From the UHGV virus genome UHGV-0098804: 31,623 bases of DNA, one strand, 5' to 3'. Both the position numbers and the translations under genes were made by a program. This DNA is from a virus. Positions within the stretch are counted from its first letter, which is position 1. Every line of letters begins with the position of its first letter. The notes beneath the pieces are model-generated. The model searched no databases. It saw only the letters and a program-made list of their open reading frames with translations, and was not told the origin of the DNA. Positions 1 through 30,156 of this stretch are shown here, in pieces.

Positions 1-150
1 CAGATGAAAAGCCCGCCATAGCCTGGCTGATTGCTAGAGCCTGCTCCTGCTGTGGGGTTTTCGGTGCTGGCGCTGCAGATGAAAAGCCCGCCATAGCCTG
101 GCTGATTGCTAGAGCCTGCTCCTGCTGTGGAGTTTTCGGAGTAGAAGGGG
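1..150 (-). repeat. In-frame 75-bp tandem direct repeat (2 copies, about 55 bp identical) inside the tape-measure-like ORF
   Basis: Positions 1-55 and 76-130 are identical (cagatgaaaagcccgccatagcctggctgattgctagagcctgctcctgctgtgg). Period 75 bp = 25 codons, encoding the repeated peptide PKTPQQEQALAISQAMAGFSS on the minus strand. Confidence 0.85.
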
Positions 151-3100
151 ATACTTGATCTCCCGGAAGTAGATCAATGATTTCTGTATCGTGATTAACA
201 GTGCGTTTTTGTTGTATGGCTGTTGCGATATCAGCCACTTGAGAAGCTTTTTTAAATCCAAAAGATTTACCGGTTAAGCCGGATATCTTTTCAGTAAGAG
301 CCTGATCCATTCCTTTCGCTTTTTCGGAAAGCGAAGATATAGAACCAAACGAAGTAGCCAACGCAAAATCCTTTACCAGGTCCAGACTTGTTCCAGCAAG
401 GCTGGTAGCCGCGCCGCCAAATAAATTACTTGCACCACTGATTCCGCTTTCATTTATTGCGATTAACCGCTCAAGCAAACTCGATGGAGAGCCGGTATTA
501 ACATCAGCGTTCTCTGGATTAATCGGTTGTGGTTGGTTACCTGTTTTTTGTGGCTTTTTGACTGCCTGGGCATGTTGTGCAACCTCAATTGGCTGTTGTG
601 TTGCTGTCGGAACGGCATTCAAAACTGGTTGAGCTGGAGATTTTCCATTAGCATATTTTACCTTGCGACCAACACTATATTGCGAATCGCGGGCAATTAG
701 CTGACCACCATTTTCTTTCTGAATTTTATTAATCCGCGCCAATGTTTCGTCAGAGAATTGTCCCTCCCATCGACCAGTGTTTGTGTTAAATGCTCCAAGT
801 GCGTTCTTAATGAACTCATTATTAACTGCCGGATTTCCGCCTTCTTTCGTCGCAATTGCACGAACTAATTGCGTCATAACCTCTGGTTTGCTGACATCTA
901 TTTTTTCATTAGGCGATACACCAAGATATTTACTGACGTTATCAATATATTGGTTAGTATTGTTCTCATTTGGCGGTGCCCATTTTGAAATGATGCTGGA
1001 TACCGTCTGTAACTTCTGATATCCCGCTGCGGCACTGGTGCCGTTGTAATAGCTGGAAACCTGGTTTGCCAGTGCCCTGATCCCTTCTTCAGGTGTGTTA
1101 AATCGCGCAAAACGTTGTTCACCTTTTGCATTTGGCGATTCCAGCGTCGCCCCTTCCTGGTTGGCAAAAACAAGATTGCCGAGATTATTATTTCGGTAAT
1201 TGCGGTTTTTAGCGTTGCTGCCGCCAATATTCAGATCCGCTGCAATGGTGTTGTTGGCAGGTGAACTAAATTCAGTTGGAGAAGTATACCCGTGCTCACC
1301 AACTCCATCCTCGCCATTACGCCCACCTTGTAATTGTTCACCTAGAGAATGAATCGCATCGACAGTTTTTTGGGTGCCGTCTTCAACAGCTTTTTTTACT
1401 TGTTTCGTGTTTTCGTCAGTGGATAAAAATGTATCCTTAAGGCTACCAAAAACAGATTTGGTGACATCTACCGCGCCGTTAACACCACGAGCAATATCTC
1501 CGGTATCAAAATTCTGAAGTTTTTCACCTGCTCTTTCAAATCCTAGCGCAGAAATTCCTTTCCCTATCAAGTTCGTTGCGCCCGACACCAAGCCCCCCAT
1601 ATCGAGCACATTAGCTGTTGCGTAAGCCGTTTTTTGCTGTTCGGATACAGCATCATCGTCACTTAATCCAAAGGCTGCCTTTTGCGCATCTGTATCAGTG
1701 TAACCATCTATAGCGTCATATCCCGCCATAGCCAGCGATCCGATGATAGGGATAGCTCTTGCAGCTGTAGAAGCAGCTGATTTAACACCTATTTTTGCAG
1801 CACTTTTGAGGGCTACGGATTCGGTTTTTTTCTTTGCAACAGTTTCACCTGTTTTAACTGTGGCCTCTTCGGCAACAACACCTGCTGGCTTAACTGCCTT
1901 TGCTGTGTTTTTTGTTTCTTTAGCAATACCCTTAGATGCGTCGCTTGTGGTGCTGATGTCTTTGGCTTTACTAACCTTTGTTTTAACAGTCTTTGCAGCT
2001 CCGGCACCAGCTCCAGCAGCAGCGGTTCCGGCAGCGGCTTTTTCACCAACAGAAAGGGCTTTTTTCCCCAGATTGCGACCTTTCCTTTTCGGTTTGTTCC
2101 GTTTATTTTTACCAGCCTGATCGCCAATATTGATTTTATTTCTTCTGCTTGCTCGATTTCTCCAGAGATCACTTAAGCCGAACTTATTCCCAGAAGATAC
2201 TGATTTGCGTAGCTTAACTACTTCGTCGGAGACATTTTCCAGACCATCAATTATTTTGTTGTCATTGGTCTGAAGAATTTTTGTTTGCTCTTCTACTGCT
2301 TGTGCTGATTTTGTCTCAACAGCATTATTAAATGCTGTTGCAGAGGTTGCTTTTTGAGTATTAACCACCGCCGGATAAGTGATAGCTGGAGATGTCGCTT
2401 TCGAAGGTGAAGCCTCACCTTTCCCCTTTTCTACCCATTCTTTAAGAGATTCTGCTTTACCTGTGATCTCTTTAGTAATGTCGTACATGCCGCGAGCAGC
2501 CATCCACAACGGACCACCAGCGCCAACACCTGCGGCATCTGTTAAAGACTCTTCACTGGAAGACTGATTGCCATCTACCCCTATAATGGAGCCTAATTTC
2601 CGGAGGAAGCCTTCTTGTAGTTTGGCGTCGGCCTTATGTGCTTTCTGCCATTCTTTTTTTCTGGCTATATCTTCGTTGTTTTTCTGGGATACAAAGCGTC
2701 CGTTACTATCCCGAAGCGGTCCTTTTTGGCTTTGGGGGGATTGTGGTTCAAGAGGAGCAGAATTAGCGGCTACTGGCACAGAACCTTTCAACTTTTGGGC
2801 TGACTGGCGTGATGACGCAAAATGAACGCGCTCTGATGTGTTGGTTGCAACAATGAGACGTTCTTCTCCGTTGTTGATCTGCGTCCTCCCTTTTTTCATC
2901 GGAAGGCGTTTTATATATGGGTTAGCTTGGGTGTTCTTGGCATCATCAGAGACATAGGGTTCGCTTGCTATGAGTCTACGGGATAGTCTTTGACTTACTT
3001 TACCTTGATTTTCACCAAGTTGAGTTATAGACCCTCTACCAGAGAGAATGGCGTCTTTGATCTCAGCAAGAGCGTTAAGTTCGTTTGTGCTCGCCCCCTG

Positions 3101-3235
3101 AATAGCGTCAATTATTGCGATACGGTCTTTATTCTCTTTCAAAATAACCTCTCTTTTGCCAGCGGCGATCAACGTTTCCCGGCTTGAGCTTTGTATTTTT
3201 CTTCCAGGGCTTTTGACATATGGAGTGCTCGCCAT
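1..3235 (-). CDS. Large virion protein, tail tape-measure-like; ATG at 3235, 3' end lies beyond window start (partial, >1077 aa)
   Basis: Hand translation of the minus strand from ATG 3235 runs without stop to position 1. The ORF track lists no >=60-aa minus ORF starting here, consistent with an ORF lacking an in-window stop. Gly/Ala/Lys-rich low-complexity stretches, an in-frame 25-aa tandem repeat and position next to tail genes suggest tape-measure or injection protein. An internal block (FARFNTPEEGIRALANQVSSYYNG...) looks like a conserved domain I cannot name. No strong SD before 3235. Confidence 0.55.
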   Translation of the reverse strand, partial: MASTPYVKSPGRKIQSSSRETLIAAGKREVILKENKDRIAIIDAIQGASTNELNALAEIKDAILSGRGSITQLGENQGKVSQRLSRRLIASEPYVSDDAKNTQANPYIKRLPMKKGRTQINNGEERLIVATNTSERVHFASSRQSAQKLKGSVPVAANSAPLEPQSPQSQKGPLRDSNGRFVSQKNNEDIARKKEWQKAHKADAKLQEGFLRKLGSIIGVDGNQSSSEESLTDAAGVGAGGPLWMAARGMYDITKEITGKAESLKEWVEKGKGEASPSKATSPAITYPAVVNTQKATSATAFNNAVETKSAQAVEEQTKILQTNDNKIIDGLENVSDEVVKLRKSVSSGNKFGLSDLWRNRASRRNKINIGDQAGKNKRNKPKRKGRNLGKKALSVGEKAAAGTAAAGAGAGAAKTVKTKVSKAKDISTTSDASKGIAKETKNTAKAVKPAGVVAEEATVKTGETVAKKKTESVALKSAAKIGVKSAASTAARAIPIIGSLAMAGYDAIDGYTDTDAQKAAFGLSDDDAVSEQQKTAYATANVLDMGGLVSGATNLIGKGISALGFERAGEKLQNFDTGDIARGVNGAVDVTKSVFGSLKDTFLSTDENTKQVKKAVEDGTQKTVDAIHSLGEQLQGGRNGEDGVGEHGYTSPTEFSSPANNTIAADLNIGGSNAKNRNYRNNNLGNLVFANQEGATLESPNAKGEQRFARFNTPEEGIRALANQVSSYYNGTSAAAGYQKLQTVSSIISKWAPPNENNTNQYIDNVSKYLGVSPNEKIDVSKPEVMTQLVRAIATKEGGNPAVNNEFIKNALGAFNTNTGRWEGQFSDETLARINKIQKENGGQLIARDSQYSVGRKVKYANGKSPAQPVLNAVPTATQQPIEVAQHAQAVKKPQKTGNQPQPINPENADVNTGSPSSLLERLIAINESGISGASNLFGGAATSLAGTSLDLVKDFALATSFGSISSLSEKAKGMDQALTEKISGLTGKSFGFKKASQVADIATAIQQKRTVNHDTEIIDLLPGDQVSPSTPKTPQQEQALAISQAMAGFSSAAPAPKTPQQEQALAISQAMAGFSS

Positions 3236-3289
3236 TGTGGCAATTGTTCAACGTCACTAACGGGCTGATATCCATACAGAGTCAGGTTG

Positions 3290-4111
3290 TTAATAATGGT
3301 TAGCCATCCATTCAGATCTAATTGATGGGATAAACTCTCTATTGAGAAAGGGGACGTACAGTGTGGTTGTCACATCTGCACCCTCCTTAGCGTTTTTGCA
3401 ATGTTGCGGAGGCAGGATCAGTCGGCTTGAGCCTCTCTCAATAGACATTTTCAGGCCGTGGCGTAGGTCTTTTTGCATAAGCTGTATGCGAGCCACAAGC
3501 GGGGTAAATTCGGTTTCAAGCGCCATGCTTTCAATGATGTCAAAGCGTCGGTTAGCGGCCTGCGTGAAGTCCTCCGGATCGTCTTCAAGCGCCGTGCATA
3601 AAGCGAGTTCAGCAATTCGCATCCGTGCTACGCCAGCACTGTATTCGGGAGTTTTCATATCAGGAAGTGACGCTCGCATTCGTTCAAGGAGTTCCGCGCC
3701 TTTCCCGGTTAATGGTTTAAGTATCCAGTCAGTTGGTACTCCATTTACTGGTACGTTGGTTTTCACGTAAGGAGGTACAGTGAGTATTTCTACTGTTTGG
3801 GCCAGGTCGCTCAGGTTAATATCTGCATGATGCGTATTACCGCAGTGACTGCACTCATAGGAGTAGGTCATTACTGCATCGGGGCGCGAATTAACAAATA
3901 TCCACCAAAGAGCAGTTCTGCGGTCCTGAACTGTCCAGTTAGCACTGTCGTTAATTTCACCATCCTGCATAGAGTTAAGGTACTCTGTAGTCGTTGCCTC
4001 ATCTTCTGCCGGGTTCAGGTCAGAATATTTCAGCGCATCCTTCACGGTAGGGGCGTGGAACTGAATTTCTGTCTCAGGACGGGAAGGCAATGGGAATTTT
4101 GGAATGTTCAA
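3290..4111 (-). CDS. Hypothetical phage protein (273 aa), TTG start
   Basis: Track ORF; GGAGG lies 7 nt upstream of the TTG at 4111; sits between the structural block and the tape-measure-like gene. No family recognised. Confidence 0.55.
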   Translation of the reverse strand: MNIPKFPLPSRPETEIQFHAPTVKDALKYSDLNPAEDEATTTEYLNSMQDGEINDSANWTVQDRRTALWWIFVNSRPDAVMTYSYECSHCGNTHHADINLSDLAQTVEILTVPPYVKTNVPVNGVPTDWILKPLTGKGAELLERMRASLPDMKTPEYSAGVARMRIAELALCTALEDDPEDFTQAANRRFDIIESMALETEFTPLVARIQLMQKDLRHGLKMSIERGSSRLILPPQHCKNAKEGADVTTTLYVPFLNREFIPSIRSEWMANHY

Positions 4112-4356: not shown

Positions 4357-4476
4357 TGGTGTAAGATTTGCCCTCAATTAAATACGATCGGTGTAAGATT
4401 TGCCCTCAGAAGGTGTAAGATTTGCCCTCAAAAGGTGTAGTAATTGCCCTCAAAGTGGTGTAAAAATTGCCCTCAC
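4357..4476 (+). repeat. Five direct iterons (19-20 bp, consensus GGTGTAAGATTTGCCCTCA) upstream of and overlapping the repA start region
   Basis: Copies at 4357-4376, 4389-4408, 4411-4430, 4433-4452, 4457-4476 with about 22-bp spacing. Ends in ATTGCCCTCA like F/RepFIB-type iterons as I recall them. Confidence 0.85.
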
Positions 4477-4499
4477 CATTTGAAGGATCACACAGGGTT

Positions 4500-5255
4500 A
4501 TGAACAGAGCGGAATTAACAGCAAAAGCCGTCAGCCTGATTGAGTCAGCGACACCTATTAGTCGTAGTCTGGCACAAGCCAATGAGATCACGGAGGCTGC
4601 TTATCACCTGACTCGCGACCAAAAGCGACTGTTGTTTATTGTGGTGGGAAGACTTCGCTATGCTTCTAAGGATGGCGTTCTTGGTTCAGGTGCCTGTGAG
4701 TTGACGGTCAACGAATATGCAGAGATGTATAATTTGCCCTCTGCTGAAGCCAGCAAGGATATTCGTAAGGCCATTTCAGGGCTTAGCGAGAAGAAAGTTA
4801 CGATATATAACCCTGATGAATCGACCGAATCAGAAGACAGTTATGAGTCTTATCCCTGGATGATTAAGGATGCCTATTCACCACGGCGCGGGACTTACAT
4901 TATTCATCTTAATCCATATCTCATGCCGTTTTTTACTCTGCTTGATAAGAGATTCACAAGGCTGAATTTTACCGAAGTATCTCGCCTTACAAATCCTTAT
5001 TCTATGCGGCTTTATGAGTCCTTATGCCAGTACAGGAAGGATGATGGAAGCGGCTTTGCCATACTTGGCGTCGAATGGATGCGGGAGCGTTATGGGTTAC
5101 CAAAAAGCTATCAGCGGTATGCCGAATTTAAGAGAAGTTTTTTAACGAAGGCTGTAGCAGAGATTGAAAAAAATACAAAAATGAAAATAGTCTTCTCAGA
5201 GGTGACGGAAGGCGGCAAAGTTACCAGGATAAAATTTACCTATCAGCAGTCTTAA
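4500..5255 (+). CDS. repA: Iteron-binding replication initiator RepA (Rep_3-like), about 251 aa
   Basis: Track ORF 4467..5255; preferred start is the ATG at 4500 (MNRAELTAK...) because the first 11 codons fall inside the last iteron. N-terminal LIESA...LTRDQKRLLFIVVGRL resembles the Rep_3 initiator motif (recalled, not searched). Flanked by iterons on both sides. Confidence 0.8.
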   Translation: MNRAELTAKAVSLIESATPISRSLAQANEITEAAYHLTRDQKRLLFIVVGRLRYASKDGVLGSGACELTVNEYAEMYNLPSAEASKDIRKAISGLSEKKVTIYNPDESTESEDSYESYPWMIKDAYSPRRGTYIIHLNPYLMPFFTLLDKRFTRLNFTEVSRLTNPYSMRLYESLCQYRKDDGSGFAILGVEWMRERYGLPKSYQRYAEFKRSFLTKAVAEIEKNTKMKIVFSEVTEGGKVTRIKFTYQQS

Positions 5256-5546
5256 GGGCAATTTTTACACCCCTCTCAAGGTGTAGAATTTGCCCTTAAC
5301 GATCGGCAATTGAGGGCAATTTTTACATCTTGATTGCATGTATCTCGTTATTAGCAAGTTGTGTTTTTATATAACGTATTGATATGTAAGGATTATGTAA
5401 AAATCGCCCTCAACCAATATCGTGCGTATCGTGCATTCTTATTGCGCTTTTTTATTATCATTCACTGTGTTAACTGATTGATATTATTGAAATATGTAAA
5501 GAATGCCTTCATTGCTGATGGATTGATGATGTAAAAAATGCCCTCA
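5255..5546. repeat. Second iteron cluster downstream of repA (mixed orientation, partly degenerate) with an AT-rich stretch: candidate incompatibility/copy-control locus
   Basis: Iteron-like copies at about 5255-5272 (inverted), 5279-5298 (direct), 5312-5330 (inverted), 5393-5413, 5491-5510, 5528-5546 (degenerate direct); AT-rich 5340-5480. Confidence 0.6.
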
Positions 5547-5636
5547 ACATTGCGCTACCTTCCCTACCCGCTATCGTTGAGGTCGTGGGTGCTGACGGGA
5601 AATGAGCAACCCTCCAGCACACATAATTAAAGCTAT

Positions 5637-6344
5637 TCAGAATTTGATCACTCCACTCACAGCCCCCTTTAACGCGCTTGTAGCCATGCCAGCGGCACCG
5701 TTGACCAAAGCAGAAACACCTGAGCCTGCGGATGTGTATTTCTGGAAAGTGATTGGATATGACAAGAACTCTGACACCTGGTCTCGTGAGCGGGTGATTT
5801 CCCCAAGTTGAGTGGGGAATACGCGCATTTCCTCTTCCAGTTCTTTTCCGCCGTCCTGAGTTACCCGGTAGAGACGGATTTTCATCAGATATTCAGGAGG
5901 AAGGTTTATTGTTCCGTCCGGATTTGTTACGCGAGAACGACGTTCTTTGAACCAGTCCATGATCTTGCCATCTTCGGTATCCCTCACGGTCATAGTGACC
6001 GGTCCGACGCTAACATAGGTTGGCTTGCTGAATTCTACGCTGCCGATCACCTTGCTTTCTGTCTCGATGTTTCCACTGCTGTACGTGATATCCTTCACGA
6101 ACATATCGAAGCCGTTCAGGCCATCCACTTCAACTGTCCATTGCCATCCCTGGGCATAACGGATACGCATAGCGGCAGCAACAATATTTTTCCCGTAGGC
6201 AATATCGCTACTGTAATTCCCGCTTACCCCGCCGCCTGATATGGCTTTATCAAGAATGTCGCTAATGAGGTTGCTGGTGAATGATTTCGTGTTAAATGAC
6301 AATGCGGTGGTCAACGTTCTACCAACGCTGCTGAAAATACTCAC
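5637..6344 (-). CDS. Hypothetical phage structural protein (235 aa), GTG start
   Basis: Track ORF; GGAGG 7 nt upstream of the GTG at 6344; closely packed in the minus-strand structural operon. Confidence 0.5.
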   Translation of the reverse strand: MSIFSSVGRTLTTALSFNTKSFTSNLISDILDKAISGGGVSGNYSSDIAYGKNIVAAAMRIRYAQGWQWTVEVDGLNGFDMFVKDITYSSGNIETESKVIGSVEFSKPTYVSVGPVTMTVRDTEDGKIMDWFKERRSRVTNPDGTINLPPEYLMKIRLYRVTQDGGKELEEEMRVFPTQLGEITRSRDQVSEFLSYPITFQKYTSAGSGVSALVNGAAGMATSALKGAVSGVIKF

Positions 6345-8104: not shown

Positions 8105-8836
8105 TTACAAACCGCGTTTTTTGCGAATGCGCATTGATTTTTTGCGGTTGATATTTGCTACGGATGTATGCGCTTTGCGGCGTGCTTTTTTCAGCGCCTG
8201 TTTTTGCAATGATGTCATGCGGCGAGGGCGCGGGCGCTTACGGATAATGGTAACCTTGCCATCACGGACCACTTTTTTACGTACCGCTTCCAGCATTGCG
8301 CTGTCACCACCAGCAACGGTGTAAATGGCAATAGCCGCTTCCATCATGTCGGCGTCGCTTTCGGAAAGCGCGTCATATACACGTTCGGCAGCAGAGTCAT
8401 CTTCATCGTCGATCATCTCGGTCACGTCGTCCTGGTCTGCGCCAAGCGCAACAGCAGCATCTGCAAGGGCTGCAAGAGCATCGTTATAAGCATCGACTTG
8501 TTCATCGGTAAAATCGGTGTCTTCATCGATATCAGCCAGGCCAGCCATAGTGATTGCTAACGCATCAAATGAGTCAGCTTCCGGATCGCCATCTTCAATC
8601 CAGCCTGCAAGCATGGAAGCCGCCAGGCTGCGCATATCTCCTTGTGCGCGAGACTCAACCGCTTCCATCATCGCGGTTTCAATATCTTCTTTTGGCTTTG
8701 TTTGAGTTTTCTGTTCGGCGCTTTCCAGCATGGCTTTATCATCATTTTCCGGCGTAGATTTATCACCGCTTTCAAAGCAGCCAGAACCAAAAATCGCACG
8801 CATAAAAGGATCAGCAGTATAATTTTTCATTTTCAA
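8105..8836 (-). CDS. Acidic protein with strongly basic C-terminal tail (243 aa): scaffold-like or DNA-binding virion protein
   Basis: Track ORF; Asp/Glu-rich body (DDEDDSAAE...) and Lys/Arg-rich C-terminus (RKRPRPRR...RKKRGL); purine-rich SD upstream. Confidence 0.45.
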   Translation of the reverse strand: MKMKNYTADPFMRAIFGSGCFESGDKSTPENDDKAMLESAEQKTQTKPKEDIETAMMEAVESRAQGDMRSLAASMLAGWIEDGDPEADSFDALAITMAGLADIDEDTDFTDEQVDAYNDALAALADAAVALGADQDDVTEMIDDEDDSAAERVYDALSESDADMMEAAIAIYTVAGGDSAMLEAVRKKVVRDGKVTIIRKRPRPRRMTSLQKQALKKARRKAHTSVANINRKKSMRIRKKRGL

Positions 8837-8871
8837 ACCTCTCTCCCCCGCATTTCTGCGGGGGTAATAAA

Positions 8872-10530
8872 TCAGCGCATCAGAATTGGTTTACCGACGA
8901 TTCGGCGAGCTGTACCGGTCGGGCAAACAGACCAGGACACTTCCCACAGATCGATGTCTTTCTGGACAACCTGGACAACATATGGATCTTCGCCCTGAGA
9001 CTTGTCACGGGGAGTAACCAGCGCACCGGATGCAACGTAACGGTCAAGCAATTCAGTCATTGCTTTCATCAGCGTCGCCTGGGTAATGCCATCCGGTTCA
9101 TGTTTAATCGCCAGTGCTACTTCATAGAAATTACGGGCAATAGCATTCATCAGAGACGAAACATGCTGGAATCGCAGGTAGTTGTTTTTACTGAAAGTTG
9201 TTAAAGAGTCGTCGATGTAGACAGAACCATCAGCAGCAACAGAAACTGGGTTAATGCGTGCGACAACGAATGCTTCGCGATCAACCGCACCGATATTTGG
9301 AATTCGGGCAATATTCTGTCGATCAATAATCGCGCGTGATATACCTGCCGGAGCGTAATGCCAGCCGCCAACATCCGATACCAGAGCCACCCCTCTTGCT
9401 TTTGCTACGAATGCATCGCAACTGATGCCGTAAACAACATTCATACCGGTGAAGGTATCTCGGCAGGAGAATGGGAAGTAGTAGCGGCTTGGCTGGTGTG
9501 AGCCACCAAAACTATGGCTTTTAGCTTCTGAAATGGCATTTTCTGGTGTCTGGTTGCCCTTCAGGTCGTAGAACATGTCTACACGAACGTCTTCTGCCAG
9601 ATTTTTGAGCGCGGCTAAGGCGGATGCGTCATAGCAGCCCAGTGACAGTAATGCGGTGTAATTAACCTCCGAGGCTTCGAGAACCTTTAATGCTTCCAGA
9701 TAGTCTTCGGTGTCAATGGTGGACAAATCGCCATCAGTGCCGCCTTCAAAAGCCACATCCTCAAACATGAGTTGAGCAGCAGATGCTTCCGCATTATCTG
9801 CCAGGACGGCACCAATGCGAGTGGACTGGCTTTCAAGCAGTGTCGGAATCCATGCTGGTTGGCCCATGTCGTTAGTGCCTTCTGGATTGAAGGACACCTG
9901 GTGGCTTTCCAGCACCTCAACAGACCCATCGGTTTGTTTTTCTTTCAGCGTCAGCGTAAAGAGTTCACTTTCTTCATCATCGCGAGTTAGTGATAACGTG
10001 CGATTTTGAGATGCATCACCATCTTTGATGAAGAATAATGCCTTCCCTTCGTCTTTAATCTGGGGAGTTTCTTTTGGTGTGAAAGTTACTGATTGTGTCG
10101 TTGCAGTTGAAGCAACACCCACGCTCAATGTGTCACCTGGATTTACTGTGGTTTCAGCAGGTTCCACGGTAAGTGTTTTGTTGGCCTTTGCCGCTTTTGC
10201 TCTGCTCGCGACGGAAACAGAAATTCCCGGCACCTTCATGTCTTTAGCGCAAACACGAACGACATAACCAGAGCCACCTTTTACGGCACGCTCCACGTGG
10301 CGGTATGGTTCAAATGCCGATCCCAGGCGAGGGTGAATAGGTGAACCTAATACGCTTTGATAAGTCGTATCGTCAACTTTCAGCACTTTACCCGGTGCGC
10401 AACGACGCGATATTACAAGCCCAGCAAAGACAGATGCGCCACCGCTGGTATTGGTGAGGGTAGCGTCAGCATTTACCGCCATTACAGCAACGCCAGCTGC
10501 CTGCCCTACCGAAAAACTAATCTTATTCAT
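8872..10530 (-). CDS. Major virion structural protein (552 aa): candidate tail sheath (or capsid)
   Basis: Long track ORF in the structural operon; assignment rests on size and context only, no confident sequence motif. Confidence 0.35.
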   Translation of the reverse strand: MNKISFSVGQAAGVAVMAVNADATLTNTSGGASVFAGLVISRRCAPGKVLKVDDTTYQSVLGSPIHPRLGSAFEPYRHVERAVKGGSGYVVRVCAKDMKVPGISVSVASRAKAAKANKTLTVEPAETTVNPGDTLSVGVASTATTQSVTFTPKETPQIKDEGKALFFIKDGDASQNRTLSLTRDDEESELFTLTLKEKQTDGSVEVLESHQVSFNPEGTNDMGQPAWIPTLLESQSTRIGAVLADNAEASAAQLMFEDVAFEGGTDGDLSTIDTEDYLEALKVLEASEVNYTALLSLGCYDASALAALKNLAEDVRVDMFYDLKGNQTPENAISEAKSHSFGGSHQPSRYYFPFSCRDTFTGMNVVYGISCDAFVAKARGVALVSDVGGWHYAPAGISRAIIDRQNIARIPNIGAVDREAFVVARINPVSVAADGSVYIDDSLTTFSKNNYLRFQHVSSLMNAIARNFYEVALAIKHEPDGITQATLMKAMTELLDRYVASGALVTPRDKSQGEDPYVVQVVQKDIDLWEVSWSVCPTGTARRIVGKPILMR

Positions 10531-11023: not shown

Positions 11024-12721
11024 TCACTTTTTTTCGTTAACCTTGCCTGTCAGCATGTCGATAGCACCTTCTTTGGCACGAGTCAGACGCAGGCGGGCGA
11101 AATAATTCTCACCGTTGCGCGGGTGGACTTCGTTGATAGCACTACCCCAGAGAGTGGTGCGGTTAACGAGAGATGGATTGGTTTCGTGCACATACGGGAT
11201 TGCTGGGACCGCATCACCAGCGATCAGCCCGGCTTTACCGATGCCTTCACCGCGACCATAGAAATAAATGTCATCCAGACCTAAGTCATATCCCTGAGCC
11301 TTGAATTGCTCACACACAGGCTGCGGCACTTCGTAAATACGAATCGTGCCAAACAGGGTGCCGATGTACTGCACATACGGTGACTGAACGTAGCCCGGCG
11401 CGATTTGGAAGTGCTGTGGAGGCAGAGAACGCAGGAAGTTAGCTGCGTCACCACCTGCGAAGCCACCGCGAATACCTGTGGTCAGGGTGCGGTTTGCCAT
11501 TTCCTGAGACAGGGCGTTTACTGCGTGGCGCAGGAGGCCGACCCAGGACTCATAGTTTTGAGCTTCAGGCAGAGCCACATCAAATTCACGACCATAAACG
11601 GTATGGAATACCAGGGTGCGCAGACGCATGATGTCGGTTTCATGGGAGATCCAGTTCCGCATTGCGGAGAACTGAAGTGCCGCCAATTCAAGGCCGTGTT
11701 CACGGCTTAAATCGGAAGCGGACATTACGGTGTGTTCGGAAGCAATTACGTACTGAGACGGTCGAACTTCATACTTACGCATAGCCTGGTTGATTACCGG
11801 AATCAGGCTTGGATTGCGCTCGATGTTAATTTCGACCTGAACCGCAATTTCAGTCCCTTCTGCTGGCGCTTGAGTGAAGGTAATGTCGATGACACCAGTG
11901 TCATAAGCGACTTTTGCGGTAGCTGAGAATGCATTGCCTTTGCAGTCTTTATCATTGAAATAAAGGTTGCCATCGCCGTCGTCAACCTTGGACGGTTTGC
12001 GGTTGATAAGCAGCTTGTTATAACCAGCACGCAGCGGGCAGGACTGCCCCTCAAAATTTTGGATGTCGAACTGGAAAGTTTTGGTGCTACCGTCCCCTTT
12101 CGTGGAAAGGGTATACAGGCGCTTCATTTGAGAATAAACACCAGCGGACTGCATATTCAGTTCGTCACCTTGCTCGAAGGTGCCGAATTTTGTGCCTGCT
12201 ACGTTGACCAGTTCATAAATATTTGACTCATCACGATCACAAGGAACAAAAGTACAGGCATCACTGGTAGCAGCACCCAGAGAGGCAGGCAGAATTAGTG
12301 CAGCATATTGAGCAACTTTCATTACGCCGTCAGAGCTACGCATTGATTGCGCGACAGACTCAAACATTGCCTTGCCAGTGCCTACGTGTGTATCGCTGGC
12401 ACATTCAGTCATCAGGCGTTCAAGTGCCATGTGTGCGTTTGCCAGGATATCGCTTGCCGGGTAGTGACCATGCTGGCGCTTGTACTCATGCAGAGACATA
12501 GCCCACCCACCAGCGATCTGACGTGCAACCTCTGGATTTACGCCTTCAAACATAGCCTCCTTCTGGATAGCTTTATCCAGGTTCTCCATCATCGCTGCCT
12601 GATCAGCAATCATATTGCCCGCAGCATCGGTGGTCGGATCGACGGTCATAGCCATGACGCTTGCCGCCCGATTCATAATCTCGCGCTCGCGATCACGAGC
12701 TGGCTGAATGTTTTTATTCAC
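11024..12721 (-). CDS. Large virion protein (565 aa): candidate major capsid protein, GTG start
   Basis: Track ORF; first gene of the minus-strand structural run, followed by the Ig-like gene. Assignment by size and order only. Confidence 0.35.
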   Translation of the reverse strand: MNKNIQPARDREREIMNRAASVMAMTVDPTTDAAGNMIADQAAMMENLDKAIQKEAMFEGVNPEVARQIAGGWAMSLHEYKRQHGHYPASDILANAHMALERLMTECASDTHVGTGKAMFESVAQSMRSSDGVMKVAQYAALILPASLGAATSDACTFVPCDRDESNIYELVNVAGTKFGTFEQGDELNMQSAGVYSQMKRLYTLSTKGDGSTKTFQFDIQNFEGQSCPLRAGYNKLLINRKPSKVDDGDGNLYFNDKDCKGNAFSATAKVAYDTGVIDITFTQAPAEGTEIAVQVEINIERNPSLIPVINQAMRKYEVRPSQYVIASEHTVMSASDLSREHGLELAALQFSAMRNWISHETDIMRLRTLVFHTVYGREFDVALPEAQNYESWVGLLRHAVNALSQEMANRTLTTGIRGGFAGGDAANFLRSLPPQHFQIAPGYVQSPYVQYIGTLFGTIRIYEVPQPVCEQFKAQGYDLGLDDIYFYGRGEGIGKAGLIAGDAVPAIPYVHETNPSLVNRTTLWGSAINEVHPRNGENYFARLRLTRAKEGAIDMLTGKVNEKK

Positions 12722-12879
12722 GGTTAAGCCCTAAATTCGGGCGCGGCGTGAAGGTTCTTTTGACGCGCTAACAATACCAACTTTGTGATTTAGTCAATAG
12801 CATTAGTAAAATAAAATCTGTTAACACACGTGTTGTTATGTGGTTTAATTTTAATTTTCTAACACAAATCATTACGGTT

Positions 12880-13272
12880 ATGGCGTATCGGATCTTTGTT
12901 TCGTATAAAAATGGCGCGAAAAGCCACTCCCTGAACACAACGAGCCGCTTTCTTGTTGAGGCGCAACTGGCATCAATTCTTGCTGAAAGTGAGATACTCT
13001 CCCTCGCTGAACGAATCGTCATCCAGTTTTCTGGTAGAGATATTCTTAATGTCCCCGCCCTCACCCCGGCCTCCGAAGTCATGGAATCCATTAAATGGCC
13101 TGTATGTGGATGCCCGGCGAGAGTTGAAGAGCCGGTAACCGCTACGCTCTATATGCCGAAAGCAGTAAGAGACTGGCTTGCTGTGATTGGCAACGGGAAA
13201 GTCAGTGCTGGACTGCGAAAGTTAATTGAAATGGCAGATATTCCAGAGTTAAAAAACGCATGGCGACAATGA
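12880..13272 (+). CDS. Hypothetical protein (about 130 aa; track start 12838, ATG 12880 preferred)
   Basis: Track ORF 12838..13272; the first 14 codons lie in an AT-rich promoter-like region; stop overlaps the next ORF (ATGGCGACAATGA). Confidence 0.3.
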   Translation: MAYRIFVSYKNGAKSHSLNTTSRFLVEAQLASILAESEILSLAERIVIQFSGRDILNVPALTPASEVMESIKWPVCGCPARVEEPVTATLYMPKAVRDWLAVIGNGKVSAGLRKLIEMADIPELKNAWRQ

Positions 13273-13289
13273 GTAAACAGGGGGGCAAA

Positions 13290-13748
13290 ATGAGTCACGC
13301 GAATCCATCAAAAACACAATATCGCTTAATGCTGGCGATCGCGTCAGCTATACCAACCAGCCTGAATCCCCCTGCTGGCTATCCCGCTGTTGTTGATGAT
13401 TGTTTTCAGTATTACGGTGAAGACATTCTGGGACAGTCGAAAGCACTAAAACAGTTGTGCAAAGCCGGGATTCTTCACTGCATAGGCGATCCGGATGATT
13501 TTGTTGTCATGCTGGCAGATCGTGACTCTTTTCTGCTGTCCTGGAAAGCCGGGGCGCGCGAAGCGCGTTTGGGGAATGGCATTGGCTACATAGACTATAG
13601 CGATTGCCCGCTGGCATTTGCTGGTGGATATATGCATTGGCATGAGCGAAATAGAGGCCGTCAGCGTCAGTATCGCTTGAGTGACTTTAACGTCTGTCAC
13701 GGTTTCGAAGAAGCTGACAGCCAGGATATCTGGCTTCAGGAGCCGTGA
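13290..13748 (+). CDS. Hypothetical protein (about 152 aa)
   Basis: Track ORF 13260..13748; AGGGGGG sits 5 nt before the ATG at 13290 (MSHANPSK...), making that the likely start. Confidence 0.4.
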   Translation: MSHANPSKTQYRLMLAIASAIPTSLNPPAGYPAVVDDCFQYYGEDILGQSKALKQLCKAGILHCIGDPDDFVVMLADRDSFLLSWKAGAREARLGNGIGYIDYSDCPLAFAGGYMHWHERNRGRQRQYRLSDFNVCHGFEEADSQDIWLQEP

Positions 13749-14020
13749 TTACCCTTCCCTTCCCAAATCTCCCTATTCCTTTGGTTATTCAGTGCGTTTC
13801 GTTGGTTGCATTCATCGATCGTGCTGAATAACTGTTCAGTGTATGTTGGATACTTGTTTAACAGCACTGGCGTGTCCTCTGGCACCAGACAAGGGTAATA
13901 ATCAATCAGATTTGCCTGCGGCTTGCTGGTGGCTTCTACGGTAATTTTCACTGGCACGCTGGTTGATGGCTTTTGCCCGTTCCCGCTGCATCCTGATAAC
14001 GTCATCAGGCACACGCACAT
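13736..14020 (-). CDS. Candidate o-spanin (Rz1-like outer-membrane lipoprotein) starting inside the i-spanin gene
   Basis: Track ORF 13736..14068 in a different frame from 13902..14375. The internal Met gives MCVCLMTLSGCSG with an L-S-G-C lipobox; the overlapped architecture is classic Rz/Rz1. Confidence 0.5.
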   Translation of the reverse strand: MCVCLMTLSGCSGNGQKPSTSVPVKITVEATSKPQANLIDYYPCLVPEDTPVLLNKYPTYTEQLFSTIDECNQRNALNNQRNREIWEGKGNHGS

Positions 14021-14375
14021 CGTTAATCCCAGCACGGTGTAACGCAGTTTCAAGACGAGTGATTTCATTCTGGCTTTCCTCTCGTTGTTTGATTAGGTTG
14101 GCATTCAGTTCTGCTGTTTTGCGCTGGTACTCCTTTTCCAGTGCTTTAATTCTTTCGTTTTCGGTCAGCATGGCTGAGCGAGCGTTCTCACTTAACTGTA
14201 ATGCGGTAGAAAGCGTGTTGTTCGTGCTTTCCAGTTGTGATTTTGAGTCTTCAAGCGATCGGACATACCTGATGTGTTCGATAACTGCCGTCGTTGTTCG
14301 GTAAATTCCAGAAATGGCTAAAAGCGCAATTACAATCAAAATTATCTTTTTCAAAACCATCCTCTCCAGGTTCAT
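13902..14375 (-). CDS. Candidate i-spanin (Rz-like): N-terminal TM helix plus coiled-coil periplasmic domain
   Basis: N-terminal hydrophobic helix (LKKIILIVIALLAISGIY) followed by heptad-rich charged sequence; overlaps the lipoprotein ORF. Confidence 0.5.
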   Translation of the reverse strand: MNLERMVLKKIILIVIALLAISGIYRTTTAVIEHIRYVRSLEDSKSQLESTNNTLSTALQLSENARSAMLTENERIKALEKEYQRKTAELNANLIKQREESQNEITRLETALHRAGINDVRVPDDVIRMQRERAKAINQRASENYRRSHQQAAGKSD

Positions 14376-15611: not shown

Positions 15612-15644
15612 TTGTTCTCAAATTGTTCTCAAATTGTTCTCGCT
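15612..15644 (+). repeat. parC-like tandem 11-bp repeats (ttgttctcaaa x2.7) upstream of parM; more ttctcaaa copies at about 15677 and 15763
   Basis: Direct repeats seen in sequence; in type II partition loci ParR binds tandem repeats flanking the parM promoter. Confidence 0.5.
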
Positions 15645-15795
15645 TCTATCCAAGTGCCCAGCAGGCGATTAAAGATATTCTCAAAACAACCTCAATTATG
15701 ACTCTTATTTATCTCTAATTATGTGGATTTTCGATGCCTTCTCTTTTAAAATCATGATTTGATTCTCAAATGTGTCTCAGAAGTGGAGCAAGAAG

Positions 15796-16752
15796 ATGCG
15801 CATTTTTATCGATGATGGTTCAACCAATATCAAAATGCTGTGGGAGCACGACGGGGAAACTCGCACTCACATCAGCCCTAACAGCTTTAAGCGCGGATGG
15901 TCAGCAACATTTGGTGCTGGCAAGCCGTTTAACTATGTCATTGACGACGAAAAGTATTCGTATGATTTGATCTCGCCAGATGTTCTGCCGACAAATAACG
16001 TGGAATGGCAATACAGCCCGCTTAACGTTCTTGCTGTGCATCATGCTTTGTTGACCAGTGGTATTGAGCCGCAAGAAGTAGAAATTGTGGTTACACTGCC
16101 ACTGGCAGAGTTTTACGACGACGATGCGCAATACAATCTCGCTAATATTGAGCGCAAAAAAGCCAGCCTGATGCGCCCTGTCACGCTGAATAAAGGCAAT
16201 GTATTCACAATTAAGAAAGTTACGGTACGACCGGAGTCTATTCCGGCAGGAATTGGCCTGTGCGACAATCTGAACCCTGCCCATTCTGTTCTTATCGTCG
16301 ATTTGGGTGGAACTACCCTTGATGTTTCAATGGTCGCCGGGCAAATGACGGCAGTTTCCCGTGTTTTTGGCGATTCGAATCTTGGTGTATCACTGGTCAC
16401 CAGGGAAGTAAGGCAAGCACTTGCCAGAGCCAATACCGAAACGTCAAATTACAATGTCGATCAGCTTATTATTAACCGCCACGATGAAGAATATCTGAAC
16501 GACAATATCAATGATCCATCCGCTATTGGTGATGTGAAAAAGGCTATTAGTACAAGCATTGACCGCCTGCGTACTCGCGTTCTTGATGTAATTAGCGACT
16601 TTAAAGGGTATACGCATGTCATGGTGATCGGCGGTGGCGCGCCGCTGGTGGCTGATGCAATTCGCGAGCACGTTAACATTCGTGATGATCGTTTCTTTGT
16701 GGCAGATGATCCGCAACTTGCTCTTGTTCATGGTCTGAAGGCTATCGGTTAA
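15796..16752 (+). CDS. parM: Actin-like plasmid segregation ATPase ParM/StbA
   Basis: Track ORF 15772..16752; ATG at 15796 with GGAG upstream preferred. MRIFIDDGSTNIKMLW...HISPNSFKRGW closely resembles the R1 ParM N-terminus as I recall it. Confidence 0.85.
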   Translation: MRIFIDDGSTNIKMLWEHDGETRTHISPNSFKRGWSATFGAGKPFNYVIDDEKYSYDLISPDVLPTNNVEWQYSPLNVLAVHHALLTSGIEPQEVEIVVTLPLAEFYDDDAQYNLANIERKKASLMRPVTLNKGNVFTIKKVTVRPESIPAGIGLCDNLNPAHSVLIVDLGGTTLDVSMVAGQMTAVSRVFGDSNLGVSLVTREVRQALARANTETSNYNVDQLIINRHDEEYLNDNINDPSAIGDVKKAISTSIDRLRTRVLDVISDFKGYTHVMVIGGGAPLVADAIREHVNIRDDRFFVADDPQLALVHGLKAIG

Positions 16753-18022: not shown

Positions 18023-18299
18023 ACGTCGAGAACCAGCTAAAGCGCCTAAGGCTACTGATCCGGAACTTGAGCGAAGAATTGAAGAGTTCGCCAGCAAAGC
18101 GGATTTAATCCCGGATGAAATTACAAAGGGGAAGGTGCTTGATAAAGATGCGCCGCGCGACTTTAAATCCATACGCGTGAGCTTTAATGAATATGAGTAC
18201 GGGGTGCTCGATGCGTTAGGCAAAAAGCTTAACCGCAGCAAATTGAACCTGATTCGACATGCCATCCTCATGCTTGCTGAGTCAGAGGATGCTAAATGA
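18015..18299 (+). CDS. Small partition partner protein (ParG/ParB-like), GTG start overlapping the parA stop
   Basis: 8-bp overlap with the parA stop (GTGATTAA); small basic protein in the position expected for a type Ib centromere-binding protein. Confidence 0.5.
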   Translation: MIKRREPAKAPKATDPELERRIEEFASKADLIPDEITKGKVLDKDAPRDFKSIRVSFNEYEYGVLDALGKKLNRSKLNLIRHAILMLAESEDAK

Positions 18300-18420
18300 T
18301 ACCGATTTGATGCCTTATTGGCGTCTATCGTGTACCAGTGCAATAATGGTGTCAAAGTGGCGCCATAATGGTGTTAATATACAGCCATATTGATATCAAA
18401 TTGACACTGTATCGGCATCA

Positions 18421-18446
18421 AAAAGCCCCAGGCGGGGCTTTTTCTA
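18421..18446. terminator. Bidirectional rho-independent terminator between the par operon and the dam operon
   Basis: aaaaagcccc aggc ggggcttttt: GC stem flanked by an A-run and a T-run; overlaps the dam stop codon. Confidence 0.6.
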
Positions 18447-19349
18447 TTTGAGCGTTGCAATGATATCGTTAGCGACTATTCGCGTGGATGCTTTGCATGA
18501 CACGGACCGCCTGGCTGGCATGTGGTACAGCTTAAAACCGTTTCTTTCGTACAATTCGCGAATTTTTGGCGCGCCACTGTTTGTTATTACTATCTTTGCA
18601 CCGCGCTGGTGGGCCGCCACCAACAGTGATACAAGCCGTTTTTGTTCATCGAAAAGGAAGCTATTTCCTGAATAGCTGGTAAATCCCTCTGTATCTGGCA
18701 GCGGCTCATACGGCGGATCACAAAAAATCACATCGTCTTCACCAGCCGCCTCGATGACACCAGCAAAGTCACCTGATACAAAGGAAGTGTTTTTGAGTAC
18801 GTCATCAGCCAAAAATGCCTCCATCTCTGCATGTGGGAAGTAGGGCGCTTTGTATTTGCCATACCCCACGTTGAACTCGCCATTTTGGTTGTACCGCGTT
18901 ACGCCATTAAAACAGTGACGATTAAGGTACAAAAATGCGGCAGCATGATGTAGCTGGTCATATTTTCCTCTGTTAAATGCCTCACGCACTTCGAGGTAAG
19001 CGTCAGCGTTGTTGTAATTTTTGAAAAAACTATATGACAGCGTGACGAGCGAATGTCCTTCTCGCTGCAATGTCTGATAGAAGTTAATCAGGTCACCGTT
19101 AATATCATTAAGCAGGTTTTGGCGAAATCCTGCATTCGTAAATACGGAACCGCCACCAACGAATGGTTCTATTAACCGCTTACCGTGTGGTAGATGCTCA
19201 AGCACTGTAGGCAATTCTGAGAATTTACCACCTACCCATTTGAATATCGGACGCTCATATTCATCCGGAGTCCGAATGGTGCGCATATAGCTAATTTCAG
19301 CCATCGTATCCTGTTTTTCTATGGCTATGCTTGCTATAGATTTACTCAT
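18444..19349 (-). CDS. dam: DNA adenine methyltransferase (Dam-like, N6-adenine, DPPY motif)
   Basis: FKWVGGK...EPFVGGGSVF...LYLNR...CDPPY align with E. coli Dam motifs (recalled). Preferred start is the ATG at 19349 (MSKSIA), which overlaps the upstream stop by 8 bp; the track start 19445 would overlap the upstream gene by about 100 bp. Confidence 0.85.
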   Translation of the reverse strand: MSKSIASIAIEKQDTMAEISYMRTIRTPDEYERPIFKWVGGKFSELPTVLEHLPHGKRLIEPFVGGGSVFTNAGFRQNLLNDINGDLINFYQTLQREGHSLVTLSYSFFKNYNNADAYLEVREAFNRGKYDQLHHAAAFLYLNRHCFNGVTRYNQNGEFNVGYGKYKAPYFPHAEMEAFLADDVLKNTSFVSGDFAGVIEAAGEDDVIFCDPPYEPLPDTEGFTSYSGNSFLFDEQKRLVSLLVAAHQRGAKIVITNSGAPKIRELYERNGFKLYHMPARRSVSCKASTRIVANDIIATLK

Positions 19350-27651: not shown

Positions 27652-27677
27652 CAGCGTCACCAGGCCTGGTGACGCTG
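27652..27677. promoter_or_regulatory. Perfect 26-bp palindrome (cagcgtcaccagg|cctggtgacgctg) just downstream of higA-2: terminator or operator
   Basis: Seen in sequence; on the minus strand it is followed by a T-rich stretch (ctttctcgcattt). Confidence 0.45.
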
Positions 27678-27682
27678 TGAAA

Positions 27683-27976
27683 TTATGCGTGGAAAAATAA
27701 TGGACGGATGTTTGGGCGAGTGGTTTGCGAAGCAACCCAAAGCTCATACTGGGATTGCATACCGGTCCACATTTCGGCACTGGTTCCAAGAGCGGACTCC
27801 AGACGAAGTGCCATATCAGCAGATATACCTGCTTTTTCATTCAGAATTCGGGAAAGCGCCGTGCGAGTAATGCCTAATGCCGCAGCGGCGTCTGTGACTG
27901 ACATGTCTCCCAAATATTCACGAAGAACCGCGCCTGGATGCGCGGGATTATGCATACGACTCATAGTGTTCCTCAA
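27683..27976 (-). CDS. higA: HigA-like antitoxin (second copy, XRE HTH)
   Basis: [18 protein letters not shown]...[38 protein letters not shown] is the canonical HigA pattern; 4-bp overlap with the upstream toxin gene. Confidence 0.8.
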
Positions 27977-28254
27977 TGATAATCCTGATAGTCAACTAGA
28001 ATTGCGTCTTCTCCTTCAAATCGGAAGGTAAGTCGCCAGTTACCGTTTACCGATATTGCCCAGTGACCTTTAAGGTCCGCCCCCTTTAGAGGGTGCAATT
28101 CCCATCCAGGCGCAGACATATCGTCCGGGCGTTTAGCTGTATTAAGCGCAGTCAATTGAATGCGTAGCTTAACCGCATGTTTGGCCTGAATGCCTGCGGT
28201 TGAACCTGTCTTGAAAAAGCGTTCAAGCCCTTTATGGCGAAATGACTTAATCAA
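27973..28254 (-). CDS. higB: HigB/RelE-like toxin (second copy); probable TTG start giving [14 protein letters not shown]...
   Basis: [13 protein letters not shown]...[43 protein letters not shown] matches the HigB/RelE toxin pattern. Track ATG at 28317 adds 21 atypical residues; a TTG at 28254 with GGA upstream restores the conserved N-terminus. Start uncertain. Confidence 0.7.
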
Positions 28255-28590
28255 AATAATTCCATTCGTGCGTGCAACCTGTGTATATACGCTACACGCA
28301 GAAAGAGTAAAATGCAAGCACTATCCGTATAGACAGAGTTTTTTCGCCACCCTGGAATTTATTGACTGTCAACAAGTGACTTTCATTAATCTTAAGGCGT
28401 GGACCAGCTCGATAGTGAGCTGGGTGTTATTTACCGATCGAATGGATTCGAAAAGATGAATATTTTTAATAAGCTGATTGATTTATTGAATAAATTCATT
28501 AGTGCTTCTTTAACTCAGCAGGTATCCACGTCAGTGTTTTTGTTACTCTTCTACCTGGTATTGAGGGAGTTAACAAAGCTACTAATGTGA

Positions 28591-29244
28591 TCAAAGTATC
28601 ACGGTATCTTCATCAACTTCTTTCCCAGCCAGTGACTTTGGCTGGGAGGTGCCTGCTTTAACTTTTTCATGCCCAATAATGGACAGGAACGAAGCGAGTA
28701 TGCCTGTTTTTTGCTCTTTCTCGACTGTGCCGGTCATCTGCTCTACGTAATCTGCACTGGCAACGTTGTGGTATACGGTCGCGTAGCAACACAGGATCAT
28801 CAGAATATGCTCCGGCCTGATATCCTGCCAGTTCACCCTGTAGACTTCTTCTCCGTTACCGTTGTATTCGGTATCAACGATAGAGTCGGGGATTTCGAAA
28901 GCACCTTTGTTATTTTGCGGCAGGGATAATAGCTTCTGGAGTTTTAACTCTCTGTATCTTTCCATCCCGACGATGATTGCTGCTCTGCCATCGGCATGAC
29001 GGGTCTTGAGAGTCACCTGGCTTGCTCCGGTGCCAGCGGAGATCGTTGGCGTAATTTCGTCTACCAGTACCTTAAATTTGCTTTTCCGCAGGGCTGCTAT
29101 AGCTGGAGGAATTTTTTGCTTTTGCTCCAATGCTGACGCGGGAAGGGGTTTTACTTCGTTAATAATGAGAGCACCGTCTTTCAGTATTGCAGTGAGCATT
29201 TGAGGCTTGCTGGTGGTCAGGCTGAATATTGCGATCTTTTCCAT
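28591..29244 (-). CDS. Hypothetical protein (about 217 aa)
   Basis: Track ORF 28591..29286; GGAGGAAGG lies before the ATG at 29244 (MEKIAIF...), and the 14 codons upstream of it are read through terminator hairpin sequence. Confidence 0.5.
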   Translation of the reverse strand: MEKIAIFSLTTSKPQMLTAILKDGALIINEVKPLPASALEQKQKIPPAIAALRKSKFKVLVDEITPTISAGTGASQVTLKTRHADGRAAIIVGMERYRELKLQKLLSLPQNNKGAFEIPDSIVDTEYNGNGEEVYRVNWQDIRPEHILMILCCYATVYHNVASADYVEQMTGTVEKEQKTGILASFLSIIGHEKVKAGTSQPKSLAGKEVDEDTVIL

Positions 29245-29270
29245 TGTCCTTCCTCCACGGATGACGGATA

Positions 29271-29296
29271 CAAAAAAAGGCCGCACATGGCGGCCT
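29271..29296 (-). terminator. Intrinsic-terminator-like hairpin oriented for minus-strand transcripts, 5' of orf 28591..29244
   Basis: On the minus strand aggccgc catgt gcggcct is followed by TTTTTTT; no minus-strand gene is immediately upstream, so the role (insulator or relic) is unclear. Confidence 0.45.
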
Positions 29297-29512
29297 GCTT
29301 TGGCGTTATGACTCCCTACCGCGCTTCGGCTGAAAGTTAATCGTCAAAAGAACCTTCAACGGGAGCCGTTAGCGCGATGGATTATGTGCAGTTTGTGATT
29401 TCCAAAATAGTGTCAACCACTTTTTGTGGATTTTATTTTTTGACCGAAATTTGGCCTAAATCATGTTGATGTAGTTGATTGTTTTTGTAACATAAAACTT
29501 CATTTTGTTTAC

Positions 29513-30136: not shown

Positions 30137-30156
30137 GTTACGCAGCGGAGGCAGAA

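Follow-up and report, generated by a model that had tools for sequence, protein, structure and literature searches.

A copy-number-variable, in-frame 75-bp repeat array in the sit homologue of a D6-like phage-plasmid

The DNA analysed here, referred to as the window, is a stretch of 31,623 nucleotides whose matches identify it as a D6-like, P1-type phage-plasmid of E. coli. From 246 to 3300, it aligns to Escherichia phage D6 at 88.7% nucleotide identity (megablast), and the D6 features matched are a pmgB homologue and a 'putative tail injection transglycosylase, similar to P1 gene sit' (orf40). The window matches 111 plasmids in PLSDB and 104 of 5426 complete E. coli genomes, in which it is plasmid-borne every time, and relatives of the element are seen in Escherichia, Shigella, and Salmonella. 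Among GTDB species-representative genomes, no exact match to the repeat unit described below was found. The window is also collinear with plasmid pEc-050-T20-ESBL_3, in which capsid, tail sheath, PAAR, ParM, RepB, and HigBA genes are annotated. The features considered here are as follows.

2 to 3235, minus strand: sit homologue, visible part of 1078 codons, with the C-terminus beyond the window
145 to 71, minus strand: repeat unit 1, STPKTPQQEQALAISQAMAGFSSAA, residues 1031-1055, the N-terminal-most unit
70 to 1, minus strand: repeat unit 2, PAPKTPQQEQALAISQAMAGFSS, residues 1056-1078, cut by the window edge
788 to 1213, minus strand: muralytic (endolysin/transglycosylase-like) domain of the sit product, residues ~675-816, N-terminal to the array
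1996 to 2023, minus strand: small in-frame repeat in sit, period 12 nt, Ala/Gly-rich, AAAGTAAAGAGAGAA, found by TRF at codons ~405-415
3290 to 4111, minus strand: pmgB homologue directly upstream of sit (PHROG 1854 'PmgB-like', E=1e-134; D6 annotation)
4467 to 5255, plus strand: ORF for a RepB-family replication initiator, downstream of 22-bp repeats
15772 to 16752, plus strand: ParM-like ORF, annotated as parM in pEc-050-T20-ESBL_3

The long minus-strand ORF at the left edge is, by gene order and homology, a syntenic homologue of P1 sit. The local order pmgB-sit-pmgA-bplA is the same as in P1, and in D6 and its relatives, the tail module reads tub, (repB insert), pmgB, sit, pmgA (T4 gp25-like), and bplA (baseplate J). 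This places sit where a tape-measure gene is expected, between the putative chaperone gene pmgB and the baseplate genes pmgA and bplA. In P1, the pmgB product has been proposed as the tape-measure chaperone, and Sit, which was detected in virions by mass spectrometry, has been argued to be the tape measure itself (Gonzales et al., PMC9024508). A 2026 cryo-EM study likewise took P1 Sit as a tape measure that occupies the tail lumen and baseplate and is lost on contraction, Sit itself not being resolved (PMC12810830). By analogy, the D6-type Sit is most probably the tail tape measure. Because synteny and partial homology are joined here by the assignment made for P1, 'tape-measure-like', the term used for this gene in a preliminary description of the window, is a fair label.

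Sit of the window and Sit of P1 are both large proteins in which an internal muralytic domain is followed by a C-terminal region. Their homologous part is the N-terminal half, where residues 175-617 align at 28% identity (E=1e-32). The C-terminal part, in contrast, is barely alignable, with a marginal alignment at the extreme C-terminus (E=0.005). P1 Sit also differs in its length of 1140 aa and in lacking the 75-bp array; a search of P1 sit for a homologous array found none. A tandem repeat has been reported for the P1 tape measure (PMC13585406) and was not identifiable in P1 sit at the DNA level. The muralytic domains differ as well. That of P1 Sit is a classical SLT domain by HHpred (PMC9024508), whereas that of the window has no Pfam match and resembles the 7q47 endolysin. 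Its matches include PDB 7q47 'Endolysin' (E=1.5e-15), 9vvp_L Gp29 (E=3.6e-13), and PHROGs 873 and 2276, and a tblastn search with Sit returned many phage endolysins and internal virion proteins. The match to PHROG 2276 'tail length tape measure protein' is limited to the lytic domain (residues 666-841); a match to PHROG 7182 covers the full-length protein. Pfam and NCBIfam scans of the full sit protein matched zero families, leaving the array and the C-terminal domain without a label. The array lies in the C-terminal third. It is preceded by the muralytic domain and the accompanying Ala/Gly/Ser-rich segment and followed by a conserved C-terminal domain of ~225 residues.

Phage D6 orf40 has the same architecture and neighbours as the window gene and 83% protein identity to it. 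It differs in that its C-terminal module is of another allele, the repeat unit is absent, and the protein is 1260 aa long; the megablast match to D6 ends at window 246 and so does not quite reach the array. Two C-terminal module alleles of sit can be distinguished, termed here repeat-type and D6-type. At the N-terminus, two unrelated alleles are also found, one beginning MASTPYVKS... (window, 3130-3235) and the other beginning MDISPLATLNNYRNGEHSICQKPW... (D6). The gene is a mosaic, and the different combinations in which N- and C-terminal alleles occur imply recombination within sit. In a study of D6-like prophages of Salmonella, divergence 'in the sit sequence' is the sole remark on the region (PMC6799933).

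In the window, TRF reports a single array here, at 1-139, with a period of 75, 1.9 copies, 98% matches, no indels, and a score of 271. Ungapped comparison of 1-64 with 76-139, a spacing of 75, gives 63 identical bases out of 64. The chance of at least 63 matches in 64 is ~6e-37 per pair and ~2e-29 after a rough correction for all positions and offsets in the window. The period equals 25 codons, and the repeat is consequently in frame with the one minus-strand frame that stays open (1082 codons up to the window edge); the remaining two minus frames are shut within 11 and 57 codons of the edge. The start codon is the ATG at 3235, in agreement with the RefSeq annotation of a 99.6%-identical relative. 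Other frames are open across the array because the sequence is repeated; they close immediately outside it and are not meaningful. Unit 1 is preceded by the junction ...DLLPGDQVSP, which is identical across all relatives. The preliminary description, which had noted two 25-codon copies within 1-150 at the visible end of a large minus-strand ORF, was right about the position (units at 145-71 and 70-1), about the ORF (which starts at 3235 and exits the left edge), and about the two copies, which are real and in frame. Its figure of about 55 bp for the identical stretch was too low, given the 63 of 64 matching bases.

The array does not end with the second unit. Its architecture is shared by 15 repeat-type proteins, among 20 proteins read, and by six loci that were dissected unit by unit. 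In relatives, the array begins ...DLLPGDQVSP-STPKTP... and internal units end ...QAM(A/E)GFSS(A/V)A. The terminal unit lacks FSSA and runs from ...QAMAG straight into AAPVVTSGKR..., which holds in every relative examined. Unit 2 of the window ends ...QAMAGFSS, the internal form. Because it keeps the FSS that terminal units always lack, the source array has at least three units. Close relatives carry longer arrays: plasmid pEC213_2, which is 99.6% identical, has 6.7 copies by TRF and 7 units in the protein, and AR_0118 has 5.7 copies by TRF and 6 units in the protein. That the window holds a true two-copy in-frame duplication, followed past the edge by unrelated sequence, would agree with the two visible copies and with the existence of relatives with n=2. 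However, the n=2 relatives (four proteins and one IMG/VR contig) all have a second unit of the terminal form, ...QAMAG followed by AAPVV, whereas the second unit of the window continues ...QAMAGFSS, and we give this alternative next to no chance.

In IMG/VR, the unit was found in six contigs. Three of them end inside the array; one of these, 99.8% identical to the window, begins within unit 1. The remaining three contain complete arrays of 2, 3, and 8 units. The contigs that end inside the array point to assembly breaks, and most likely only two copies are visible in the window because either the source sequence or the window itself breaks off at a repeat beyond the resolution of short reads. 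Hence, window 1-145 is, with little room for doubt, the cut upstream end of an in-frame variable-number tandem repeat (VNTR) in a sit homologue. The earlier suggestion that the array may continue beyond the window is thereby borne out, by the internal-type FSS of unit 2 and by relatives that reach 17 units, and what had been described as a tandem duplication is instead the cut end of a multi-copy array of variable copy number. Relatives, rather than being confined to two copies with no length variation, range from 1 to 17 units.

This variation is evident in two censuses of plasmids, in which array length was taken as the span between two unique flanks in each record minus the flank length, using a flank-only query. 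Among 55 PLSDB plasmids with both flanks at ≥94% identity, arrays of 1-12 units were found (2, 3, 7, 6, 9, 8, 2, 6, 4, 4, 3, and 1 plasmids for n=1 to 12, respectively). Fifty of the 55 are exactly on the 75-bp register; a few records are 1 bp off and have no annotated gene at the locus. When 1000-bp flanks were compared with complete E. coli genomes, 57 plasmids gave arrays of 1-17 units, 53 of them on register and four off by 9 bp yet still in frame. Flank identity across the censuses is ~94-100%, and the distribution of copy number is broad and roughly unimodal, with a mode of 5-6 and a range of 1-17. The locus thus has the properties of a VNTR: its near-identical units lie head to tail, and close relatives differ in how many they have. 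It follows from this polymorphism that near-identical plasmids encode Sit proteins of ~1276 to ~1676 residues. Of the PLSDB records matched by the flank query, about 60% have the repeat-type allele; the majority of the remainder match at 80-90% identity and are taken to be the D6-type allele without repeats. A second site in the gene is polymorphic in length, the micro-repeat at 1996-2023, where two relatives have four additional residues (AAAG) and two others have five (TAAAG). Since this micro-repeat varies as well, sit contains two independent length-variable sites.

Differences in copy number could in principle be assembly artefacts, produced by collapsed or mis-bridged repeats in hybrid assemblies of an array whose true length is constant. 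Short-read contigs do break at the array, and Unicycler hybrid assembly, used by the group that works with strain Ec-050, can miscount tandem units (method: PMC11039899). Against this, replicate and sister records agree exactly: WCHEC035148, which was sequenced twice, has 4 and 4 units, MLI108K1/K2 have 17, AR_0118/0119/0128 have 6, SX4/SX48 have 4, and three CP0577xx records have 3 each. Moreover, counts from 1 to 17 come from many laboratories and platforms, and arrays vary in the order of unit variants as well as in number. An artefactual origin is therefore very improbable.

The array also appears to vary within a single strain. Five complete plasmid records of Ec-050 (NZ_CP086473 to NZ_CP086513) have 11, 9, 5, 5, and 5 units; by label, T0 has 11 units, T5-MAC has 9, and T5-ESBL, T20-ESBL, and T20-MAC have 5. 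The plasmids are 90446, 90296, and 89996 bp long, differences that equal the array differences exactly, and the 5-unit array is the 11-unit array minus six internal units. Ec-050 belongs to ST167 and carries NDM-5, and the group using it assembles Illumina and ONT R9.4.1 reads with Unicycler in hybrid mode (PMC11039899). Because of this method, the Ec-050 counts need confirmation. If the hybrid assemblies are right, the records suggest that the array changed within one lineage over a short time, the labels T0, T5, and T20 being read as a time series from the strain names alone.

If Sit of these elements serves as a ruler, as proposed for P1, it would occupy the lumen of the tail tube, its C-terminal end placed at the baseplate hub, and polymerisation of the tube would stop once the far end of Sit is reached. 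The near-identity of the units together with the reshuffling of the arrays suggests that replication slippage or unequal recombination adds, removes, and rearranges units, in each case without disturbing the frame. Rings of contractile tails rise by ~4 nm. Each added unit of 25 residues (~3.8-4.8 nm) would then add roughly one more tube and sheath ring (~4 nm), and tail length would be polymorphic, with 1 to 17 units corresponding to a span of ~16 rings.

The dimensions of P1 are consistent with such a scale. Its tail has 52 tube rings and two tube-like rings (PMC12810830). The 1140 residues of P1 Sit, divided among ~54 rings, give ~21 aa per ring, or ~1.9 Å per residue. At this ratio, spanning the tail would take essentially all of P1 Sit, the region past the lytic domain as well as the N-terminal helical part, and 25 aa would correspond to about one ring. 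From this we infer that the C-terminal third of Sit counts towards the measured length. Gonzales et al., who assumed a 120-nm tail, restricted the ruler to the N-terminal ~750 residues (PMC9024508), and with the ruler so restricted, the array lies outside it. In tape-measure systems, in-frame deletions and duplications shift tail length proportionally (Katsura and Hendrix, lambda; PMC3271669), in-frame deletions or duplications of the TP901-1 tape measure alter the tail as well, and part of the length of tape measures comes from tandem repeats (PMC13585406). A point against the ruler is that the D6-type Sit resembles P1 Sit in its N-terminal half only. Among the isolated phages of the phage collection, none has the array; D6, the only D6-like member, is without it. 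We regard the chances that unit number measurably alters tail length as evenly balanced.

The sequence of the unit bears on whether it would be stretched in the tail. The consensus is PAPKTPQQEQALAISQAMAGFSSAA, and 50 units fall into 14 distinct sequences that are ~95-100% identical. Each unit of 25 residues comprises 7 Ala, 4 Gln, 3 Pro, and 3 Ser, and because of the Ala, Pro, and Gln codons, its GC content is 58-61%, compared with 44.7% in the rest of sit. In composition, the unit resembles a short helix-prone segment that leads into an Ala/Pro-rich linker. The idea of an amphipathic helix was dropped, as the helical hydrophobic moment of the unit (at 100 degrees) does not stand out from those of shuffled sequences, 64% of which score at least as high. 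In one heptad register, A, I, M, and F fall at a/d positions, in a sequence too short for this to carry weight. AlphaFold2, run on the single sequence of the repeat and C-terminal region, returned a mean pLDDT of 43.6, and the model was discarded as structural evidence. Nine nucleotide sites vary among 43 internal units, three of them silently and six with a change of amino acid (L/I, S/N, A/E, A/V, Q/L, and T/I; mostly conservative).

Because of the linker-like composition, the non-significant moment, and the uninformative AlphaFold model, the units could be slack rather than taut. The array would then be a flexible, length-neutral Ala/Pro/Gln-rich spacer that is slack or compact in the tail, and tail length would not depend on copy number; a function, if there is one, would be exerted after ejection, for example by providing reach between the muralytic and C-terminal domains across the periplasm. 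In addition to the composition and the lack of a confidently predicted fold, the mostly conservative changes at six of the nine variable sites, the placement of the array C-terminal to the ruler region of Gonzales et al. (PMC9024508), and the fact that D6-type alleles manage without an array agree with a spacer. However, the number of P1 rings relative to the length of Sit leaves no spare protein, and at ~21 aa per ring, the C-terminal third would have to span the tube too. Furthermore, Piuri and Hatfull reportedly found in 2006 that deletion of an internal peptidoglycan-hydrolase motif from the tape measure of mycobacteriophage TM4 shortened the tail, so that non-helical inserts can count towards length. 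The length-neutral spacer is a plausible minority explanation, clearly less probable than an effect of unit number on tail length.

A different question is whether selection acts on the array at all. Copy number may drift neutrally by slippage under relaxed selection, in elements that are mainly inherited as plasmids or are often defective as phages, and the array may have no function. The broad, roughly unimodal distribution, the change in copy number between records of the single strain Ec-050, and the few records that are 1 bp off register without an annotated gene are what such drift would leave. On the other hand, the frame is intact in nearly all records, though any 75-bp change keeps the frame automatically, and the rest of the 4-kb sit gene is intact and conserved. 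Neutral drift of a functionless array is unlikely; it concerns selection rather than mechanism and would be compatible with tail length changing or staying the same. The range of 1-17 among near-identical elements does suggest that selection on length is weak, and many of these plasmids may rarely or never produce virions. The array could also act as a natural, fast-mutating 'adjustable ruler' that, within one phage-plasmid lineage, yields contractile tails varying by up to ~16 rings, the variation being kept to suit the envelope, O-antigen, or capsule thickness of the hosts. This is unlikely. If true, tails would differ by roughly 60-75 nm, ~30% of tail length, and the array would be the structural counterpart, in a virus, of a contingency locus.

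It is established that tape measures can contain tandem repeats and that these are linked to length, and the sit array is apparently an undescribed and unusually unstable example; a literature search found no paper describing the 75-bp array of sit. With the tape measures of siphoviruses, including lambda gpH and TP901-1, it shares in-frame repeated units inside a tail-length ruler, and the gain or loss of units is a recognised route by which tape measures, and hence tails, change length. The tandem repeats of siphovirus tape measures are built from units of 11 residues that carry Trp/Phe markers (Belcaid et al. 2011, PMC3271669). The sit array has neither their period of 11 or 11-11-18 nor Trp/Phe at fixed spacing; its unit is of 25 residues with one Phe and no Trp. 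Belcaid repeats are also ancient and diverged, whereas sit units are ~95-100% identical in DNA and vary in number between near-identical genomes. Additionally, unlike classical siphovirus repeats, the sit array belongs to a contractile-tailed element and lies downstream of the lytic domain. According to a 2026 survey, the tape measures of myoviruses are mostly without tandem repeats (PMC13585406).

Bacterial VNTRs and contingency loci offer a second comparison. Like them, the sit array has near-perfect tandem units whose copy number varies between close relatives and apparently within a strain. It differs in that the unit is a multiple of three, so that only protein length varies, and in that the locus is a structural gene of a phage-plasmid. 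Switching of frame or of promoter spacing, which defines phase-variable contingency loci, was not found in the sit array. Because 75 bp is a multiple of three and the array lies within an ORF, register-exact variants keep the frame, and the array is not an on/off switch.

If unit number sets tail length, these elements already supply an allelic series, from 1 to 17 units in nearly isogenic backbones, the backbones being widespread phage-plasmids of E. coli, Shigella, and Salmonella. Such a series could be used to test how a contractile-tail tape measure with an embedded lytic domain gauges length, whether residues downstream of that domain count, and how many residues correspond to a ring. If unit number is without effect on the tail, the array is an ordinary unstable linker repeat. 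In either case, the array accounts for the points at which short-read assemblies of the plasmids break, and it could serve as a high-resolution marker for typing D6-like phage-plasmids among clinical E. coli clones.

Two further repeats lie outside sit. At 4390-4475, TRF reports 3.9 copies of the 22-bp unit GGTGTAAGAATTGCCCTCAAAA, directly upstream of and overlapping the start of the RepB-family ORF, and these are almost certainly plasmid-replication iterons. Iterons have been mentioned for D6-like prophages (PMC6799933). A role of the 75-bp array at the DNA level, as binding sites or iterons, was considered and rejected because the array lies within a conserved ORF and the real iterons of the plasmid are elsewhere, at 4390-4475. 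The second repeat, a perfect 11-bp unit TTGTTCTCAAA in 2.7 copies (TRF), occupies 15612-15641, ~130 bp upstream of the ParM-like ORF. In plasmid R1, parC has 11-bp iterons, and by analogy, the repeat of the window is possibly a centromere of the parC type.

Relatives of the window also differ from it at several places away from sit. In pEC213_2, the closest relative, an IS200/IS605 insertion with tnpA and tnpB (RNA-guided endonuclease) occupies 8574-9300, between repB and the tail-tube gene. The insertion site corresponds to window ~5300-5640; neither the window nor most relatives have the insertion. The Ec-050 plasmids contain an insert of ~2 kb (12044-14036) with a glutamine-tRNA ligase gene (glnS) beside a truncated DNA adenine methylase gene. 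An aminoacyl-tRNA synthetase gene is unusual on a phage-plasmid, and the corresponding site in the window, ~18297-18455, is without the glnS insert. Finally, megablast blocks against the Ec-050 plasmid break at 27654, 28529-29570, and 30634, which marks window 27654-30634 as a stretch of poor conservation or rearrangement.
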